A program made the translations under genes and the position numbers. This document shows, in pieces, positions 15,965 to 24,433 of a stretch of DNA of 64,000 bases (the first letter of the stretch is position 1; each line of letters starts with the position of its first letter). The stretch lies in assembly GCF_055900595.2 (NCBI RefSeq), contig NZ_CM148325.1. One strand, 5' to 3'. The notes beneath the pieces are model-generated. The model ran no database searches and was not told the origin of the DNA. It saw only the letters and a list, made by a program, of their open reading frames with translations.

Positions 15965-16858
<894 letters not shown>

Positions 16859-16904
16859 TTACCTCATCAATCGCTTGTAGTTATATGTTGTGTTGTGCAC
16901 ATCT

Positions 16905-16940
16905 ATCCGTTTAGACGTCCAGATGTAAAGATGAAGGAAA
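16905..16940 (-). promoter_or_regulatory. metF promoter with tandem MetJ operator repeats (met boxes)
   Basis: agacgtcc agatgtaa agatgaag tandem 8-bp repeats matching the AGACGTCT met-box consensus, 50-80 bp upstream of metF. Confidence 0.6.
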
Positions 16941-17150
16941 AGCTGAAGGGCGTCAACCGAAAAATGACCAATGATGGTGAGGAAAAATCAGGGAAGATGA
17001 AAAAAACTCATCTTAATTAGAGGTAATAAAGAGATTTCTTTATAGCGCAATCAACCTCACTCGTTTTGACTGATATACAGGCAACACAACGGCACCTGTT
17101 CTCATTCGAAAAACAACGCCCTGCCACCAGATGGTGATGCTAAAGCATCT

Positions 17151-17181
17151 GATTCGGCCTGCGCTCTCGTGTAGGCCGAAT
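17151..17181. terminator. Stem-loop downstream of island nucleotidase paralog 1; possible terminator near the left island boundary
   Basis: attcggcct…aggccgaat inverted repeat. Confidence 0.3.
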
Positions 17182-17237
17182 ACAGAATCTGCGAAATCAA
17201 CTGGTAACAAACAGTAGAGTCAACTCAGTGCGTACTT

Positions 17238-18797
17238 TTATTTAATATCTTTCACGCGCATACCGTTGATCTGTTCATCCGTGATGGTGTTACCCGCTTT
17301 AAAGTAATCAACCACCGCGTGATAAACGTAATAACCGCCCGTCGTATTGCGCGCTTTACCCTCGGTAAACGCGGTAAAACCATCTCCACCATCAGCAAGG
17401 AAACTCTGAGTAGCAATGTGGTAAACCGTCGCATCTTCAATCGGTTTGCCATTCAGCGTCAGCGAGATAACCCGCTGACCAACCGGCTTGCTGCTGTCGT
17501 ACTTCATTTCCAGGCCTTTCGATACCTGTAAAACGCCATTACTTAAACTTGCGCCGTGTTCCATCAAACCGCGTAATTGTTTACCCGTGAGTTCCATCGT
17601 CACCAGTTCGTTGGGGAACGGGAAGGTACTGATGACGCCACCCATCGTAATTGCACCCGCCGGGATCTCATTGCGAATCCCACCAGAGTTGGTTAACGCC
17701 AACTGGGTATTTTTACCCGCCGCTACCAGTAAAGCGTCCGCCGCCAGGTTCCCCAGGGATGCCGATTCACCATAGGCACGTTTTAATTCAACTGGCGATT
17801 GCGCCACCGTTTGCTGCACGACTTCATCCAGCTTTTTATTCCAACTATCAATCACCTGTTTTGTTTGCGCATCGGGCTTCCACTCGTCGGCGTAAAGGGT
17901 TTTAAGCTCGAAGTTTTTCACCGTAAAAGTGTGCGGTTTCTCTTTGTAGTCGAGAACCAGTTTACCCACATCAATCCCACCGCTGTCAGTGGAGAGGATG
18001 AGCGTATTGCCGACTTTAATCGGTTCCGGCGTACCCACATGTGCATGCCCGGTGATCAAAATATCCAGCCCTTTCACCTGACTTGCCGTCTGAATATCTT
18101 TATCCAGTGCGCGGCGCACATCTGTGCCCCCCATACTGGACTGGCGGGCCGGAACACCTTCGTGAATCAGCGCAACGGTCAAATCAACCTTGCCTTTGAG
18201 TTCATCGATATAACGTTGTAGCCATTTAATTTCATCACGCGCCTCAATACCCACTCGCGTTGCCGCAGATACCGTATCATTAAAGGCAAATACACCGTGC
18301 AAACCTATAACACCAATTTTCACGCCGTCTTTTTCAATAATGGTATATGGCTTATCCCAGAATGATTTACTGCTGTTCTGATAAAAAACATTACCCTGCA
18401 CAATCGGGAATTGTGCCTGACTCAACTGTAATAACGTATTGTCCCAGCCGTGATCAAATTCATGATTACCTATAGTGGCCGCATCGAACGGCATGGTATT
18501 CATAATATCGATAATCGCCTTGCCTTTAGTCAGGCTGCTGATATACGGCCCGGTAAAATAGTCACCCGCATCAAAAAACCAGGTCGCTTTGTTTTTAGCT
18601 TTTTCTTGTTTAACAAGCGTAGTGATATTTGCCCAGCCGCCAATATCCCGTTTACCCTCAGCAATCCACGGCACTTTATAGGGCTCTACATGTGCGTGGA
18701 GGTCATTGGTATAAATAATGGTGACATCTTTGGCGCAGGCCCAAAACGGCAGTGTTAATGCGATACCCGCAGCAAGCATTTTAATTTTCATAAACAA
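17238..18797 (-). CDS. Island paralog 1: secreted 5'-nucleotidase/UDP-sugar hydrolase-like metallophosphoesterase (UshA family)
   Basis: N-terminal signal peptide; metallophosphatase motifs DLHAH, DAGDYF, GNHEFD, HEG, GHAH; C-terminal 5'-nucleotidase-like domain; no K-12 counterpart at this locus. Confidence 0.8.
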
Positions 18798-18850
18798 TCC
18801 CTTCCAGTGAGATAAAGGATTGCTACATTACGTTCTGAAAGGCTTTTTTA

Positions 18851-18866
18851 TGTGAGAATACTCACA
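18851..18866. promoter_or_regulatory. Perfect CRP-binding palindrome in the divergent intergenic region between island paralog 1 and the Zn-ribbon gene
   Basis: tgtga-gaatac-tcaca equals the TGTGA-N6-TCACA CRP consensus, with an A/T-rich flank. Confidence 0.55.
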
Positions 18867-18923
18867 TCCAGAGGCAATAACTGTAGGACAAAATCGACGA
18901 CCTTATGAAATCGTTGGTGATAT

Positions 18924-20051
18924 ATGTCAAATCTGTTTGCGATTAATGTCTGTAAAACGTTCGGTTGTCGAAATTTGGGATTGGCCTCATCGGAAGATTA
19001 CAGTTGGCCAGACTATAAACTGGGTTTTCCGGCACTGCACTGCCAGGCATGCGGAAGTTACCCCCCTTTGTTTGATGAACAACAATTTCGTGACTGGTTG
19101 TCAGTTCACATGACTGCGTGTGCCATAGAAACAGGGCATTTTTGTCCATCATGCTATTGTAAAGAAAAGATTTTTTATGGCCACAACCCGCATGGAACAC
19201 AACGCGTTCAATGCCGTTCATGCAAAAAAGTCTGGACTCCGAAACAGCAGCCAGCAAGAGAAATTACGTATCCCCAGTCCATTGAAACCGTTCAACTGTT
19301 CATGCCCTTTCAAGGAGCCAGCGCACTACAAAAGCTCTATGTTTTAGTCAGTCTTGACGCCACTCGTGGCAACATCCTTCATCTCTCCACGAATTATACG
19401 CAACATCAGACAGGAGACAGTCTGCGGTACAGTTACAGAGGCAATACAGAACCAACTGAGCACCATAGCGATATTGTGCAGAGGGTAGATATGCGTGAAG
19501 CGCAATTCTTGCGCCGGAGCCAGTTCGATGAAATTCAGTATGGCAGTGCTGTGCTCAAGCGCAATGGCAAGGGAGCCATACTACGCCCGGTTATCACGGC
19601 TCACGGGCATTTCAGAATACTGAAAATCCGCTTTCCACATGTCAAAACGCATATCATTTCACACGAATGTTTTCTGAGAGGCGCAATTATTACAGCCTGG
19701 GCAGATCAGTTCCGCCAACAACAAGGCGAACTTTGGTTCGTAGAAGAAGAAATCAGCGACCGTAACGCTGATATTCCCTGGCATTTTCAGGGAACGACAT
19801 ACCATGGTTGGTGGCAAAATCAGTGGCAACGCTGGGGGCAGGGGAATAACAGCAAGATGGTCTGCCTGCTCACAGGAGTCTCCTTAGAAAGGGGCGCAAA
19901 TGTTTCTCTGGCAACCAGTCGTTGCTTTATCACATGGCTGACAGACCAACACGACTTTACCCAAAGCGCGTTATTATCCGCAGGTCGCGTAACGAAAATG
20001 CTGACCTCACTGGCGTTAAAATACAATGAATCGCTCACTCCATCTTGTTAG
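18924..20051 (+). CDS. Cys-rich Zn-ribbon protein resembling an IS1595/ISXO2-family transposase; catalytic integrity uncertain
   Basis: FCPSCYC…(12 aa)…RVQCRSCKKVW follows the CPxCG…RYxCKxCxKxF transposase Zn-ribbon pattern; a downstream stretch (THIISHECF…FVEEEISDRN) loosely resembles the end of a DDE domain. Confidence 0.55.
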   Translation: MSNLFAINVCKTFGCRNLGLASSEDYSWPDYKLGFPALHCQACGSYPPLFDEQQFRDWLSVHMTACAIETGHFCPSCYCKEKIFYGHNPHGTQRVQCRSCKKVWTPKQQPAREITYPQSIETVQLFMPFQGASALQKLYVLVSLDATRGNILHLSTNYTQHQTGDSLRYSYRGNTEPTEHHSDIVQRVDMREAQFLRRSQFDEIQYGSAVLKRNGKGAILRPVITAHGHFRILKIRFPHVKTHIISHECFLRGAIITAWADQFRQQQGELWFVEEEISDRNADIPWHFQGTTYHGWWQNQWQRWGQGNNSKMVCLLTGVSLERGANVSLATSRCFITWLTDQHDFTQSALLSAGRVTKMLTSLALKYNESLTPSC

Positions 20052-20169
20052 TCAATACACTCGACAAACGACCATAAATTAATGGGATCACTATTTCTCA
20101 TTTAATTAAATATATGAATGTATGACTGAAAAATATAATCACAGTCAATGTTTAATTAATAACATTATT

Positions 20170-20185
20170 TGTTACTAAGATCACA
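20170..20185. promoter_or_regulatory. CRP-like site (one mismatch) in the AT-rich promoter region upstream of island paralog 2
   Basis: tgtta-ctaaga-tcaca, about 95 bp upstream of the ATG at 20281. Confidence 0.3.
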
Positions 20186-20280
20186 TAATACTTTCCTGAC
20201 CTATGCTTACATAAAAATAAGACACGGAGTTCCTTTTATTTAAATAATTCAACCAATGTAACAACCCCTATCAAGGAGGG

Positions 20281-21834
20281 ATGATGAGAACTGTATTTAC
20301 GACTTTATCAGTCATATTCAGCGTGATGTTTTCTCACAGTATACTAGCTCAGGACGTTACTATTTATTATACGAATGATATTCACGCACATGTCAATCCG
20401 GCAAAAATTCCCGCTGTTGATAAGAACAGACTTGTAGGTGGTATGGCTAATATTGCAGGCATCGTTAATGAAGCGAAGAAAAAAAACAAAGATGTCTTTT
20501 TCTTTGATGCAGGCGACTATTTTACCGGTCCGTATATCAGTACCCTGACCAAAGGTGAAGCTATTATTGATATCATGAACACCATGCCCTTTGATGCGGT
20601 GTCCGTTGGTAATCACGAGTTCGATCACGGCGTGCCCAATATGGTATCTCAGTTATCAAAAGCAAAATTCCCCATTCTGCTGGGAAATATTTACTACACC
20701 GATACAAATAAACCAGTTTGGGATCATCCGTGGACTATTATCGAAAAAGATGGTTTAAAGATTGGTGTGATTGGATTGCATGGTGCATTCGCTTTCTATG
20801 ATACAGTCGCGGCAAAAGCACGTGAAGGCGTAGAAGCCAGAGACGAAATTAAATATTTAAATAAAGCACTTGCAGAATTAAAAGGTAAAGTCGACATTAC
20901 CGTTTTGCTAATTCACGAAGGTGTTCCGGCGCGTCAATCAAGCTTTGGTAGTAAAGATGTGGAGCGGCTACTACAGGCAGATATTGAGACAGCTAAAAAA
21001 GTGAATGGTGTTGATGTCTTAATTACCGGTCACGCACATGTCGGAACACCGCAACCAATAAAAGTTAATAACACATTAATTGTATCTACCGATGCATACG
21101 GCACCGACATCGGAAAACTTGTGCTTGATTACAATCCGAAAACGAAGAAAATTGATAGTTATAATGGTGAGTTAATCACCATCTTCGCAGATCAATTTAA
21201 ACCTGACACCATCGTTCAAAATACTATCGATAAATGGAGTGCAAAGCTTAACAAAATAACACAGGAAGTTGTCGGCCATTCTCCCGTAGTTTTAACACGT
21301 GAGTATGGCAGTTCTTCTTCTACCGGTAACCTTATTCTTGATGCAATGATGGAAAAAACACCAGATGCCATTGCCGGATTTCAAAATAGCGGTGGGATGC
21401 GAGCTGATTTTCCTAAAGGTGATATCACGCTGGGAGATGTTATTAGCACATTCCCCTTTAATAATGACCTCATCGAGATGGATTTGACGGGCCGCGATCT
21501 CAAATCGTTGATGACGCATGCAACCAATCTAACTAACGGTGTGTTACAGGTTTCAAAAAGCGTTGCGGTTGTCTATGACAGCAAAAAACCACTGAACCAA
21601 CGGTTAATCTCTTTCACCATTAACGGCAAACCCGTGGAAGATAATCAAACATATCGTATTGTCACGCACTCCTTTTGTGCCAGTGGTGGTGACGGTTTTG
21701 AAGCATTTTTGAATGGAAAAAATGTGAAGACGATACCGGGAACAACCTCGGCGGAATCTATCATCGATTATTTCAAAAATCATAAACCTGTCACCCCAGA
21801 CTTAACTAAACGAGTAATGGACGTCGCCAAATAA
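20281..21834 (+). CDS. Island paralog 2: secreted UshA-family 5'-nucleotidase-like metallophosphoesterase
   Basis: Signal peptide; DIHAH, DAGDYF, GNHEFD, GHAH motifs; AT-rich codon usage. Confidence 0.8.
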   Translation: MMRTVFTTLSVIFSVMFSHSILAQDVTIYYTNDIHAHVNPAKIPAVDKNRLVGGMANIAGIVNEAKKKNKDVFFFDAGDYFTGPYISTLTKGEAIIDIMNTMPFDAVSVGNHEFDHGVPNMVSQLSKAKFPILLGNIYYTDTNKPVWDHPWTIIEKDGLKIGVIGLHGAFAFYDTVAAKAREGVEARDEIKYLNKALAELKGKVDITVLLIHEGVPARQSSFGSKDVERLLQADIETAKKVNGVDVLITGHAHVGTPQPIKVNNTLIVSTDAYGTDIGKLVLDYNPKTKKIDSYNGELITIFADQFKPDTIVQNTIDKWSAKLNKITQEVVGHSPVVLTREYGSSSSTGNLILDAMMEKTPDAIAGFQNSGGMRADFPKGDITLGDVISTFPFNNDLIEMDLTGRDLKSLMTHATNLTNGVLQVSKSVAVVYDSKKPLNQRLISFTINGKPVEDNQTYRIVTHSFCASGGDGFEAFLNGKNVKTIPGTTSAESIIDYFKNHKPVTPDLTKRVMDVAK

Positions 21835-21868
21835 AATATCATTTATCAGTCTATTTATTTAACAAGGA

Positions 21869-23494
21869 ATGCGAATGAAAACAGTGCAGCGTACTTTACT
21901 TGCCGCAACATTGCTGACTATTTTTTCGGTCTCAGCCATGGCGCAGGATGTCACGATTATTTATACCAATGATCTTCACGCTCATGTGGATTCTTATAAA
22001 GTGCCGTATATCGCAGACGGAAAACGCGACATTGGCGGCTTTGCCAATATATCTACTTTAGTAAAACAAGAGAAAGCGAAAAATAAAGCCACCTTTTATT
22101 TTGATGCTGGAGACTATTTCACCGGCCCTTATATCAGCAGTCTGACAAAGGGCGAAGCAATAATTGACATTATGAATACCATGCCTTTTGACGCAGTATC
22201 AATCGGTAATCATGAGTTTGACCATGGCTGGGATAATGCCCTGCGACAATTAAGCAAAGCGAATTTTCCTGTTTTATTGGGCAATGTTTATCATAAAGAG
22301 AGTGAGAAACCCTTCTGGAACAAGCCCTACACCATCCTGGAAAAAGATGGCATCAAGATTGGTATTATTGGGCTACACGGCGTATTTGCATTTAATGATA
22401 CGGTCTCGGAGCTCTCTCTCCAGGGACTCGATAATGACAATAATAACCGCTTTGATAAATCTTCCGAGACCCTTAAGAATCAGGGGATTGAAGCACGTGA
22501 TGAAGTGAAGTATTTGCAGCATTATATCGACGAGTTACGTGATAAGGTTGACCTCACTGTGGCGCTGGTTCATGAAGGCGTTCCGGCGCGTCAGTCCAGC
22601 ATTGGCAATACAGATGTTAGACGCGCTCTTGATAAAGATATTCAAACCGCTAGCAAGGTGAAAGGATTGGATATTCTGATTACCGGGCATGCCCACGTCG
22701 GAACGCCAGAGCCAATCAAAGTCGGCAACACCTTAATCCTTTCAACTGATAGTGGCGGTATCGATATTGGTAAATTAGTCCTTGATGTCAACCCTACAGC
22801 TCGTACCCATAAAATGAAGAGCTTTGAGCTGAAAACAGTTTATGCCGATGAATGGATACCCGATCCAACGACACAAAAAGTTATCAATGGCTGGAATAAA
22901 AAACTGGCGGATATTGTACGCCAACCAGTGGGTGAATCATCGATTGCATTAACTCGCGCCTATGGTGAGTCATCGCAACTAGGCAACCTGTTTACCGATG
23001 CAATGCTTGTCGCTGCTCCGACTGCACAGATTGCATTGATAAACTCCGGCAGCTTACGTGCGGATATAAATGCAGGCACGATTACCTTTGGCGACATTAC
23101 CAGTACATTCCCCTTCAAGAATGAACTTACTGAAATGGATCTCAGCGGTAAGGATCTGCGTAACCTACTGGAACACGGGGCATCGCTTACCAATGGCATC
23201 CTGCAAATGTCAAAAGGCGCAGAAATGCGCTATACCCCGCAGAAACCAGTAGGTCAGCGCATAGTATCTTTTAAAATTAATGGTGAAGAGATCGTTGATA
23301 CGAATATTTACCATGTTGCAACAACGACTTTCCTTGCACTGGGGGGCGATGGTTTTCTGGCATTCAAAGAAGGGAAAAATGTTCAGGTCCGCGCCGGAAA
23401 TAACATGTCCGATGTCGTGATCGATTATTTGAAGAAAGGCCACAAGATTACGCCTGCACAGGTAAATGAAATGCGGGTGGACGTTAGCAAATAA
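21869..23494 (+). CDS. Island paralog 3: secreted UshA-family 5'-nucleotidase-like metallophosphoesterase with a ~24-aa Asn/Asp-rich insertion
   Basis: Signal peptide; same motif set; closest by eye to paralog 1 but with an extra ELSLQGLDNDNNNRFDKSSETLKN segment. Confidence 0.8.
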   Translation: MRMKTVQRTLLAATLLTIFSVSAMAQDVTIIYTNDLHAHVDSYKVPYIADGKRDIGGFANISTLVKQEKAKNKATFYFDAGDYFTGPYISSLTKGEAIIDIMNTMPFDAVSIGNHEFDHGWDNALRQLSKANFPVLLGNVYHKESEKPFWNKPYTILEKDGIKIGIIGLHGVFAFNDTVSELSLQGLDNDNNNRFDKSSETLKNQGIEARDEVKYLQHYIDELRDKVDLTVALVHEGVPARQSSIGNTDVRRALDKDIQTASKVKGLDILITGHAHVGTPEPIKVGNTLILSTDSGGIDIGKLVLDVNPTARTHKMKSFELKTVYADEWIPDPTTQKVINGWNKKLADIVRQPVGESSIALTRAYGESSQLGNLFTDAMLVAAPTAQIALINSGSLRADINAGTITFGDITSTFPFKNELTEMDLSGKDLRNLLEHGASLTNGILQMSKGAEMRYTPQKPVGQRIVSFKINGEEIVDTNIYHVATTTFLALGGDGFLAFKEGKNVQVRAGNNMSDVVIDYLKKGHKITPAQVNEMRVDVSK

Positions 23495-23506
23495 TAAAAA
23501 AATTAT

Positions 23507-23541
23507 AATGCCATTCATTCACTGAATGGCATTATTTTTCT
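23507..23541 (+). terminator. Rho-independent terminator or attenuator between paralog 3 and the Tsx-like gene
   Basis: aatgccattcattcactgaatggcatt hairpin followed by atttttc. Confidence 0.55.
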
Positions 23542-23572
23542 CTAAATCAACAATAAATAATGAGATATATTT

Positions 23573-24433
23573 ATGTGTATAAAAAAGCACGGGATAGCTT
23601 TATCGATTCTATTAATACCTTGCATTGGAAACGCTCAGGAAATTAAAAGTGAGGAAGGCTGGTTACATCAAAGCTTGAATGTCATTGGTCGCACAGACTC
23701 TCGCTTTGGCCCAAGGCTGACTAACGACCTCTACCCTGAATATACTGTAGCAGGAAGAAAAGACTGGTTTGATTTTTATGGTTATGTTGATCTACCAAAA
23801 TTCTTTGGCGTCGGCAGTCACTATGATGTTGGGATCTGGGATGAGGGCTCACCACTATTTACGGAAATAGAACCTCGGTTTTCCATTGACAAATTGACCG
23901 GATTAAATCTTGCGTTCGGCCCTTTTAAAGAATGGTTCATTGCAAACAACTATGTCTATGATATGGGTGACAACCAGTCATCCCGGCAAAGTACATGGTA
24001 TATGGGGCTTGGTACAGATATCGACACGGGTCTACCAATTAAGCTTTCTGCCAATATATACGCCAAGTATCAGTGGCAAAACTATGGTGCCGCTAATGAA
24101 AATGAATGGGACGGATATCGATTCAAAATAAAATATAGCATTCCTCTTACCCATTTATTCGGAGGGCGATTGGTATACAATAGTTTTACTAACTTTGATT
24201 TTGGCTCCGATCTTGCGGACAAATCACACAATAATAAACGAACCAGTAATGCTATTGCTTCAAGCCATATCCTTTCCCTGCTATATGAACACTGGAAATT
24301 TGCATTTACACTACGTTATTTTCACAACGGTGGACAATGGAATGCTGGGGAGAAAGTTAACTTCGGAGATGGTCCATTTGAATTAAAAAACACAGGATGG
24401 GGAACCTATACTACTATTGGTTATCAATTTTAA
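23573..24433 (+). CDS. Tsx-like outer-membrane nucleoside-specific channel (Tsx/OmpK family paralog)
   Basis: Signal peptide; long collinear similarity to E. coli Tsx (…KDWFDFYGY…[17 protein letters not shown]…[16 protein letters not shown]…[26 protein letters not shown]…); C-terminal aromatic residue. Confidence 0.8.

Follow-up and report, generated by a model that had tools for sequence, protein, structure and literature searches.

Three old nucleotidase paralogs, a Tsx-like gene and a transposase-like partner gene between metF and metL of Escherichia coli

Why would a bacterial chromosome keep three related nucleotidase genes side by side? The question is raised by a stretch of Escherichia coli chromosome of 64,000 nucleotides (contig NZ_CM148325.1 of RefSeq assembly GCF_055900595.2; hereafter, the window), whose gene order runs katG, metF, a 7.6-kb accessory segment and metL. 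An initial annotation had noticed in this segment three UshA-like genes, one inverted relative to a tandem pair, and both the arrangement and the coordinates agreed exactly with the list of open reading frames (ORFs). We refer to these genes as P1, P2 and P3, and to a conserved gene between P1 and P2, which that annotation did not mention, as ORF375. A tsx-like gene lies downstream of P3. We consider it fairly likely that the segment serves to scavenge extracellular nucleotides, as an accessory locus of the chromosome built from two layers of different age. Its features are as follows.

17006..24649, no strand assigned: accessory segment, from the metF upstream region to the metL stop codon, delimited by alignment to K-12
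17238-18797 (ORF; RefSeq start at 18791), minus strand: P1 nucleotidase, 519 amino acids
18851..18866, no strand assigned: CRP consensus core TGTGA-N6-TCACA with zero mismatches, between the divergent P1 and ORF375 starts
18924-20051, plus strand: ORF375, 375 codons, between P1 and P2
20170..20185, no strand assigned: CRP-like site TGTTACTAAGATCACA with one mismatch, upstream of P2, a weak candidate
20281-21834 (ORF; feature 20284..21834), plus strand: P2 nucleotidase, 517 amino acids, with Metallophos and 5_nucleotid_C domains
21869-23494 (ORF; feature 21875..23494), plus strand: P3 nucleotidase, 541 amino acids, with Pfam domains
23505..23535, plus strand: 13-bp stem-loop with a T run after it, in the gap between P3 and the tsx-like gene; candidate terminator or attenuator
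23573-24433, plus strand: tsx-like gene, downstream of P3, a paralog of the Tsx-family outer-membrane nucleoside channel matching PRK15106

The nucleotidase subfamily and its age

Computed alignments gave 68.4% protein identity between P1 and P3, within the two-thirds to three-quarters that had been estimated by eye, and 55.6% and 56.1% for P1-P2 and P2-P3, respectively. P2 is the most divergent and the most AT-rich of the three paralogs. GC contents are 47.8% for P1, 40.7% for P2, 44.4% for P3 and 40.1% for the tsx-like gene, compared with 52-58% for the flanking genes; the higher AT content of P2 and the tsx-like gene relative to P1 had been remarked on before. P2 and P3 carry Pfam Metallophos (PF00149) followed by 5_nucleotid_C (PF02872), and precomputed Pfam data list both domains for a P1 ortholog.

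All three proteins contain DxH, GD, GNHE and GHAH motifs. In alignments with K-12 UshA, the dimetal ligands and the His-Asp dyad (UshA D41, H43, D84, N116, H117, D120, H217 and H252) are invariant, and the position of UshA Q254 is occupied by His in P1, P2 and P3, giving the classical GHxH motif. Hence every metal ligand and catalytic residue of the motif set claimed for all three copies is kept, and the check for ligand loss was negative. The C-domain residues for phosphate, base stacking and ribose (UshA R410, F429, N431, F498 and D504) are likewise invariant. No Arg aligns with UshA R375 or R379; the paralogs have a conserved Arg two residues from the R379 column (LKRAYG, LTREYG and LTRAYG). 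P3 carries a clade-specific, Asn/Asp-rich insertion of ~20 residues in its N-terminal domain. By inspection, the signal peptides, which had been described as cleavable-looking in all three, resemble substrates of the Sec pathway and signal peptidase I with Ala-X-Ala type cleavage (ACA↓KD, ILA↓QD and AMA↓QD). Citrobacter orthologs have Ser instead of the Cys that precedes the P1 cleavage site, and P1 is therefore not a lipoprotein.

The description "UshA-like" holds at the level of the superfamily and fails at the level of the UshA family. The paralogs are 25-27% identical to K-12 UshA and scored 150.6, 165 and 156.3 bits against the UshA model NF007109, whose cut-off is 600. Scores against other NCBIfam models were also far below their cut-offs (CpdB, 81-102 vs 486; NadN, 122-132 vs 436; SoxB, 148-154 vs 550), and the curated equivalog cut-offs of UshA, CpdB, NadN, SoxB and YfkN were reached by none of the three. 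UshA and the paralogs share the two-domain architecture, the dimetal site, the His-Asp dyad, the Phe clamp, the ribose-binding Asp and predicted periplasmic export, whereas the paralogs are ~30 residues shorter and differ from UshA at Gln254 as noted above.

The closest solved structure is PDB 3IVD/3IVE, deposited as "Nucleotidase". P1 matches it throughout, scoring 1105 bits over its whole mature length (residues 21-519); P2 and P3, which scored 635 and 766 bits against 3IVD, are its paralogs and lack solved structures of their own, and the extra loop of P3 sets it apart from the solved protein. We take 3IVD/3IVE to be CFT073 c4898, presumably structural-genomics entries with uridine and cytidine bound. 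A literature search by the PDB codes 3IVD and 3IVE found no biochemical paper. The next solved relatives are the Thermus thermophilus 5'-nucleotidase (2Z1A, 161 bits) and CD73 (~108-117 bits), which align over both domains; they are distant homologs from other hosts and cellular settings. Judged by these alignments and scores, P1, P2 and P3 form their own subfamily of predicted periplasmic two-domain 5'-nucleotidases, the solved member of which is P1. We infer 5'-nucleotidase activity and a periplasmic location for all three, which are intact and probably active and exported.

How old are the three copies? Nucleotide identity between them reaches 70-76% over stretches of a few hundred bases only, and similarity this low over stretches this short rules out a recent duplication as well as an assembly artefact. 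Between paralogs, the proportion of synonymous differences (pS) is 0.79-0.82 and hence saturated, while nonsynonymous divergence (dN) is 0.24 for P1-P3 and 0.38-0.39 for the pairs with P2. Relatives, scanned with one genome per species, occur in Enterobacteriaceae, Rahnella, Vibrio, Cetobacterium, Bacteroidota, Acidobacteriota, SAR86 and Paenibacillus. A neighbour-joining tree of 53 sequences (200 bootstraps) places the Enterobacterales sequences, including P1, P2 and P3, in one clade (99%), within which the P3 lineage is sister to the P1 lineage (100%). The P1 orthogroup (100%) holds genes of Escherichia, Citrobacter, Kosakonia, Phytobacter, Enterobacter, Pluralibacter, Rahnella and others, the P3 orthogroup (100%) holds Citrobacter, Enterobacter and E. 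albertii genes, and P2 falls in a third clade (99%). Since each orthogroup spans genera, the duplications predate the splits between those genera, which bears out the earlier suggestion of an old duplication rather than a recent amplification.

The ratio of nonsynonymous to synonymous divergence (dN/dS) between the window and strain UTI89 is 0.035 for P1, 0.094 for P2, 0.082 for P3 and 0.108 for the tsx-like gene. Such low values within E. coli indicate that all four genes are maintained by purifying selection. Together with the kept residues, the values for the nucleotidases agree with the initial view of them as intact, probably active secreted enzymes rather than pseudogenes.

Two layers between metL and metF

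Homology to K-12 stops near position 17005 on the metF side and restarts at the metL stop codon, so that ~17006-24649 takes the place of ~190 bp of K-12 intergenic DNA. Among 5426 complete E. coli genomes, 658 (~12%) carry the full segment, comprising P1, ORF375, P2, P3 and the tsx-like gene; carriers include UTI89, CFT073 and SMS-3-5. A short form was found in ~1186 more genomes (~22%), which match the P1-ORF375 part alone at ~87% nucleotide identity and in which the homolog of ORF375 terminates within the 3' end of metL. A third state, represented by K-12, has neither part, and query coverage in any other genome is below 37% at most.

The order metL, ORF375-like, P1-like, metF is also found in Citrobacter youngae, C. 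werkmanii, C. braakii and C. portucalensis, in Kosakonia and Phytobacter, and further in Pseudocitrobacter, Superficieibacter, E. whittamii, Salmonella Infantis and Klebsiella-type records; in Kluyvera, it is present in decayed form. The recurrence of the same short arrangement across genera indicates that P1 and its partner ORF375 are an ancestral pair at metL-metF across Enterobacteriaceae, that K-12 reflects a loss, and that P2, P3 and the tsx-like gene are a later add-on.

Comparison of the window with the E. coli short form located a step between the two layers. Identity is 91-96% through metF and P1, drops at ~18765-18800 to 69-79% through ORF375 and ends near 19865, and synonymous divergence (dS) is 0.31 for P1 and 1.7 for ORF375. 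The step in identity and the contrast in dS indicate that ORF375 and the P2-P3-tsx-like group have a different history from P1. The separate acquisition that the initial annotation had offered as one option thus found support in the form of a P1 gene ancestral in many genera and an added P2-P3-tsx-like group. The step lies in the P1/ORF375 intergenic region and marks an old recombination boundary, and the window allele of ORF375 resembles that of Pseudocitrobacter cyperus (85%) more than that of the E. coli short form (73%).

Reordered clusters, with a divergent ORF375, a P1-like gene, one or two P2-like genes, a Tsx-like gene and a P3-like gene, were found in a Citrobacter, in Enterobacter asburiae and in E. 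albertii. An atypical Escherichia genome (L009 in our records) has a multi-paralog cluster between kdsA and chaA; this cluster is absent from the complete E. coli genomes, where matches to it are cross-matches to the metL-metF paralogs. A rare fourth state between metF and metL occurs in E. coli 2018-05-2CC (L005), which has an inserted phosphotransferase system EIIC gene and a MalI-like regulator, along with remnants alone of P1 (the C-terminal 135 amino acids) and ORF375. In other genera, a radical-SAM/SPASM gene resembling an anaerobic sulfatase maturase sits after the P3-like gene, and Salmonella arizonae and Citrobacter have a P2-like gene in the neighbourhood of a sulfatase gene, the gene for its maturase and a distant homolog of ORF375 (loci for the radical-SAM/SPASM and sulfatase-context genes: L009 13252-14343, L010 13158-14246 and L050 3453-7508). 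This context raises a possible link to sulfated substrates.

The product of the tsx-like gene belongs to the Tsx family: it scored 491.8 bits against PRK15106 (cut-off 311) and shares 65% identity with K-12 Tsx. When the Tsx paralogs of the two types of cluster (window 23573-24433 and L009 10704-11582) are compared, each shows 65% identity to K-12 Tsx but only 58% to the other, which suggests separate recruitment or fast divergence. In SMS-3-5 (L001 9672-10532), RefSeq calls the tsx-like gene an incomplete pseudogene; a 286-codon ORF is present there, and its best local BLAST segment is 100% identical to the window protein.

ORF375 and the shared intergenic region

Pfam detected no significant domain in ORF375. 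The protein has eight invariant cysteines, making up two Cys4 zinc ribbons, the second of which resembles the InsA ribbon of IS1, and a predicted RNase H-like catalytic-core fold that resembles DDE transposases and integrases. This combination recalls IS1 transposases, which join an InsA zinc ribbon to a DDE core. However, ORF375 scored 19.6 bits against the IS1 model NF033558 (cut-off 100), with the match limited to the zinc ribbon, and it differs from IS1 transposases in lacking a conserved DDE triad: among 20 close and mid-distance homologs, Glu248 is the sole invariant acidic residue and no Asp is invariant, and among 20 distant homologs of the family no acidic residue is invariant. The hallmarks of a mobile element are absent as well, in that no terminal inverted repeats flank the gene, it is present in single copy, and it occupies the same syntenic position across genera. 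Its dN/dS is 0.11-0.24, indicating purifying selection. The absent triad, the absent repeats, the synteny and the selection are unlike the behaviour of an active insertion sequence, and, on these sequence features, ORF375 is best read as a domesticated, IS1-like derived transposase with a predicted cytoplasmic location. Compared with distant members of its family, the window protein is without a segment of ~45 residues.

The genomic company of this family is consistent. A profile search of 1.84 billion representatives yielded 453 relatives. Ten distant ones were looked up; two lie on contigs too short to judge, and in all eight informative contexts the gene is directly beside nucleoside or nucleotide catabolism genes. 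Three of the eight lie just downstream of a Metallophos/5_nucleotid_C gene, two just downstream of a PNP/UDP phosphorylase gene, and three beside clusters that combine nucleoside transporter and phosphorylase genes with those for phosphopentomutase or adenosine deaminase. The nucleotidases beside three of these relatives are 32-35% identical to P1-P3, closer than UshA. A change of motif was seen in the nucleotidases at L089 722-2272, L091 3366-4940 and L095 3301-4866, which have NDIES in place of the NDLHAH of P1-P3, so that the first DxH motif becomes DxE.

We tentatively propose, at less than even odds, that Enterobacterales, Vibrionaceae and related Gammaproteobacteria have an unnamed family of transposase-derived proteins devoted to the catabolism of nucleosides and nucleotides, that ORF375 is one of its members, and that the role of the family is most likely that of a DNA-binding regulator partnered with CRP. 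Such a regulator may control P1, and perhaps P2, P3 and the tsx-like gene, together with CRP. A role as a nucleic acid-processing partner appears less likely. If the proposal is true, ORF375 would be a bacterial domesticated transposase wired into a metabolic regulon, and a syntenic, selected, transposase-like protein beside nucleoside catabolism genes would represent a new family of regulators or accessory proteins.

The 126-bp gap between the divergent P1 and ORF375 genes holds the exact CRP consensus core. It is the sole zero-mismatch site in the window, where ~0.06 would be expected, and its centre is 67.5 bp from one of the two divergent start codons and 65.5 bp from the other. In the orthologous gap of every genus examined, the half-sites are kept and the six-base spacer is variable, which is the pattern expected of a functional CRP site; this conservation extends to a distant module in Atlantibacter whose ORF375 homolog is ~40% identical. 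Expression of P1 and ORF375 is thus probably dependent on cyclic AMP (cAMP) and CRP through the shared site. A hexamer, TAATGT, read from the sequence 20 bp beyond the core on the P1 side, has a spacing that would fit a class II CRP arrangement. The locus resembles K-12 Tsx and the CRP/CytR-controlled nucleoside genes in combining a Tsx-family pore with a CRP consensus before nucleoside-related genes. It differs in that the pore is a second copy and in that inspection of the intergenic sequence found no recognised CytR operator or tandem CRP arrangement. By eye, without computation, nothing convincing was found for Pho boxes or for CytR or DeoR operators in the two intergenic regions.

Two conserved blocks flank the CRP core. 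The first, CTTTCAG...CTGAAAG (18798-18835), lies in the P1 leader. The second, the inverted repeat CAACGA-N10-TCGTTG (18885-18915), is just upstream of the ORF375 start; when it is considered as an RNA hairpin, the window and C. youngae variants favour opposite strands. Further downstream, P2 and P3 lie behind their own AT-rich intergenic region of 229 bp and, at 34 bp apart, are probably co-transcribed. The hairpin between P3 and the tsx-like gene has a predicted energy of -18.7 kcal/mol (z -5.2 vs shuffles).

Proposed function and competing explanations

In the scavenging locus that we favour, the first layer would be P1 and the divergent ORF375, an old Enterobacteriaceae pair between metL and metF that was lost from K-12-type E. 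coli, and the second would be P2, P3 and the tsx-like gene, added later downstream of ORF375. The three nucleotidases would be exported by their Sec signal peptides and would most likely strip the 5'-phosphate from nucleotides inside the periplasm. The Tsx paralog would add nucleoside permeability to the outer membrane, and the products would then be imported by ordinary inner-membrane transporters. The promoters of P1 and ORF375 would probably respond to cAMP-CRP through their common conserved site. The physiological role of the locus, and any division of labour among the three enzymes, are what we infer from these features.

Several points weigh against this reading. Because no equivalog cut-off is reached by P1, P2 or P3, their true substrates could differ from 5'-nucleoside monophosphates. 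A periplasmic nucleotidase needs no outer-membrane nucleoside pore, so the functional logic of the linkage is loose. The case for CRP control is drawn from sequence; in addition, CRP matches with up to two mismatches are not enriched in the window (29 found vs 27.8 expected), and the CRP-like site upstream of P2 is weak, since it is kept in UTI89 and SMS-3-5 along with the whole intergenic region, which is 96% identical there. Searches by locus tag (c4894-c4898 and STM4102-4105) found no enzymatic, expression or phenotype study of the three genes, and a survey of ushA-like genes did not treat these paralogs.

Might the three enzymes instead have come to act on different, partly non-canonical substrates, with the locus serving host interaction in extraintestinal pathogenic E. 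coli (ExPEC) rather than nutrition? Candidate specialities include pyrimidine as opposed to purine nucleotides, nucleoside di- and triphosphates, UDP-sugars, NAD, dinucleoside polyphosphates, cyclic dinucleotides and sulfonucleotides, and host interaction could involve, for example, making adenosine or destroying signalling nucleotides. We regard this explanation as unlikely, while recognising what speaks for it. Purifying selection has maintained three divergent copies next to one another over a very long period, P3 has its clade-specific insertion, and P2- and P3-like genes of other genera adjoin sulfatase and radical-SAM maturase genes. The relatives CpdB, AdsA and CD73 have roles in host interaction or involving signalling nucleotides. 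The model ExPEC strains that were compared in a 2026 paper on the genome of ExPEC BEN2908 (PMC12928451) also share the locus.

The conserved residues speak against such specialisation, which the initial annotation had suggested from the three co-located isozymes. The equivalents of UshA R410, F429, N431, F498 and D504 are identical in the three proteins, and a comparison of the P1, P2 and P3 orthogroups found 153 positions that are conserved and identical but only 30 that are fixed differently between clades. Of the latter, 23 are in the N-domain, and three are no more than three residues away from a key one (108 near N111, 373 near R375 and 465 next to F466). Moreover, the CRP site and the nucleoside pore point to catabolism, and many Enterobacteriaceae that are not pathogens carry P1 as well. 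Overall, the data are compatible with subtle specialisation, with regulatory partitioning, or with both. Should the enzymes prove to differ in substrate, the use or destruction of extracellular nucleotides in gut, urine or tissue would vary from strain to strain.

Purely regulatory partitioning, in which redundant isozymes persist on account of differing conditions or levels of expression rather than differing substrates, seems to us improbable. The apparent transcription units would allow it, since P1 and ORF375 diverge, P2-P3 follow their own AT-rich gap and a hairpin precedes the tsx-like gene; the active-site sets are nearly identical, and many E. coli strains have P1 alone of the three. 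Yet regulation cannot separate P2 from P3 if, as seems probable, they share a transcript, and redundant copies seldom last until dS is saturated while dN/dS stays below 0.1. Finally, a recent duplication, an assembly artefact or a decaying pseudogene copy found no support beyond a few genomes with IS1 insertions or truncations at the locus, and is refuted by the low nucleotide identity and saturated pS, the intact ORFs and catalytic residues, the low dN/dS, the occurrence of an identical 7.75-kb segment in independent complete genomes, and the presence of the exact protein sequences of the locus on 289-371 contigs.

The locus is real, old, already annotated (RefSeq lists all its genes), partly solved structurally and described in the literature. 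The BEN2908 paper lists the same region as "GR 31, metL..metF", complete in all compared strains, including UTI89/RS218 and LF82/NRG857c (PMC12928451). It describes the same three UshA-domain ORFs and Tsx-like ORF as the window contains, and suggests, in silico only, a coordinated system for nucleoside processing and transport. ORF375 is not among the ORFs in its passages on GR 31, and those passages mention neither the CRP site, nor the age of the duplications, nor the ancestry of P1. Points not reported before are the ancestral pairing of P1 with ORF375, the conservation of the CRP site, and the transposase-derived family with its link to nucleoside catabolism. The locus separates E. coli lineages into those with all three enzymes (~12%), those with the P1-ORF375 part alone (~22%) and those of K-12 type with neither, and it offers a well-defined set of three uncharacterised enzymes, one with a crystal structure, ready for biochemistry.

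Searches for further elements in the segment were negative: an Rfam scan of 16800-24750 with E values up to 1 found no RNA family, PADLOC matched none of the five locus proteins to a defence system, and no terminal inverted repeats were found flanking the accessory segment, which leaves the idea that all of it arose as a mobile element without support. Carriage on plasmids is not supported either, since the best "plasmid" matches are chromosomal pieces with the order metB-metL...metF-katG that were filed as plasmids. Two such records, NZ_CP019203.1 (H67) and NZ_CP039131.1 (H73), contain this chromosomal core and are probably mis-assigned or mis-assembled. A record named "Pseudomonas sp. A2" among the plasmid-filed matches has a gene set of enterobacterial type.

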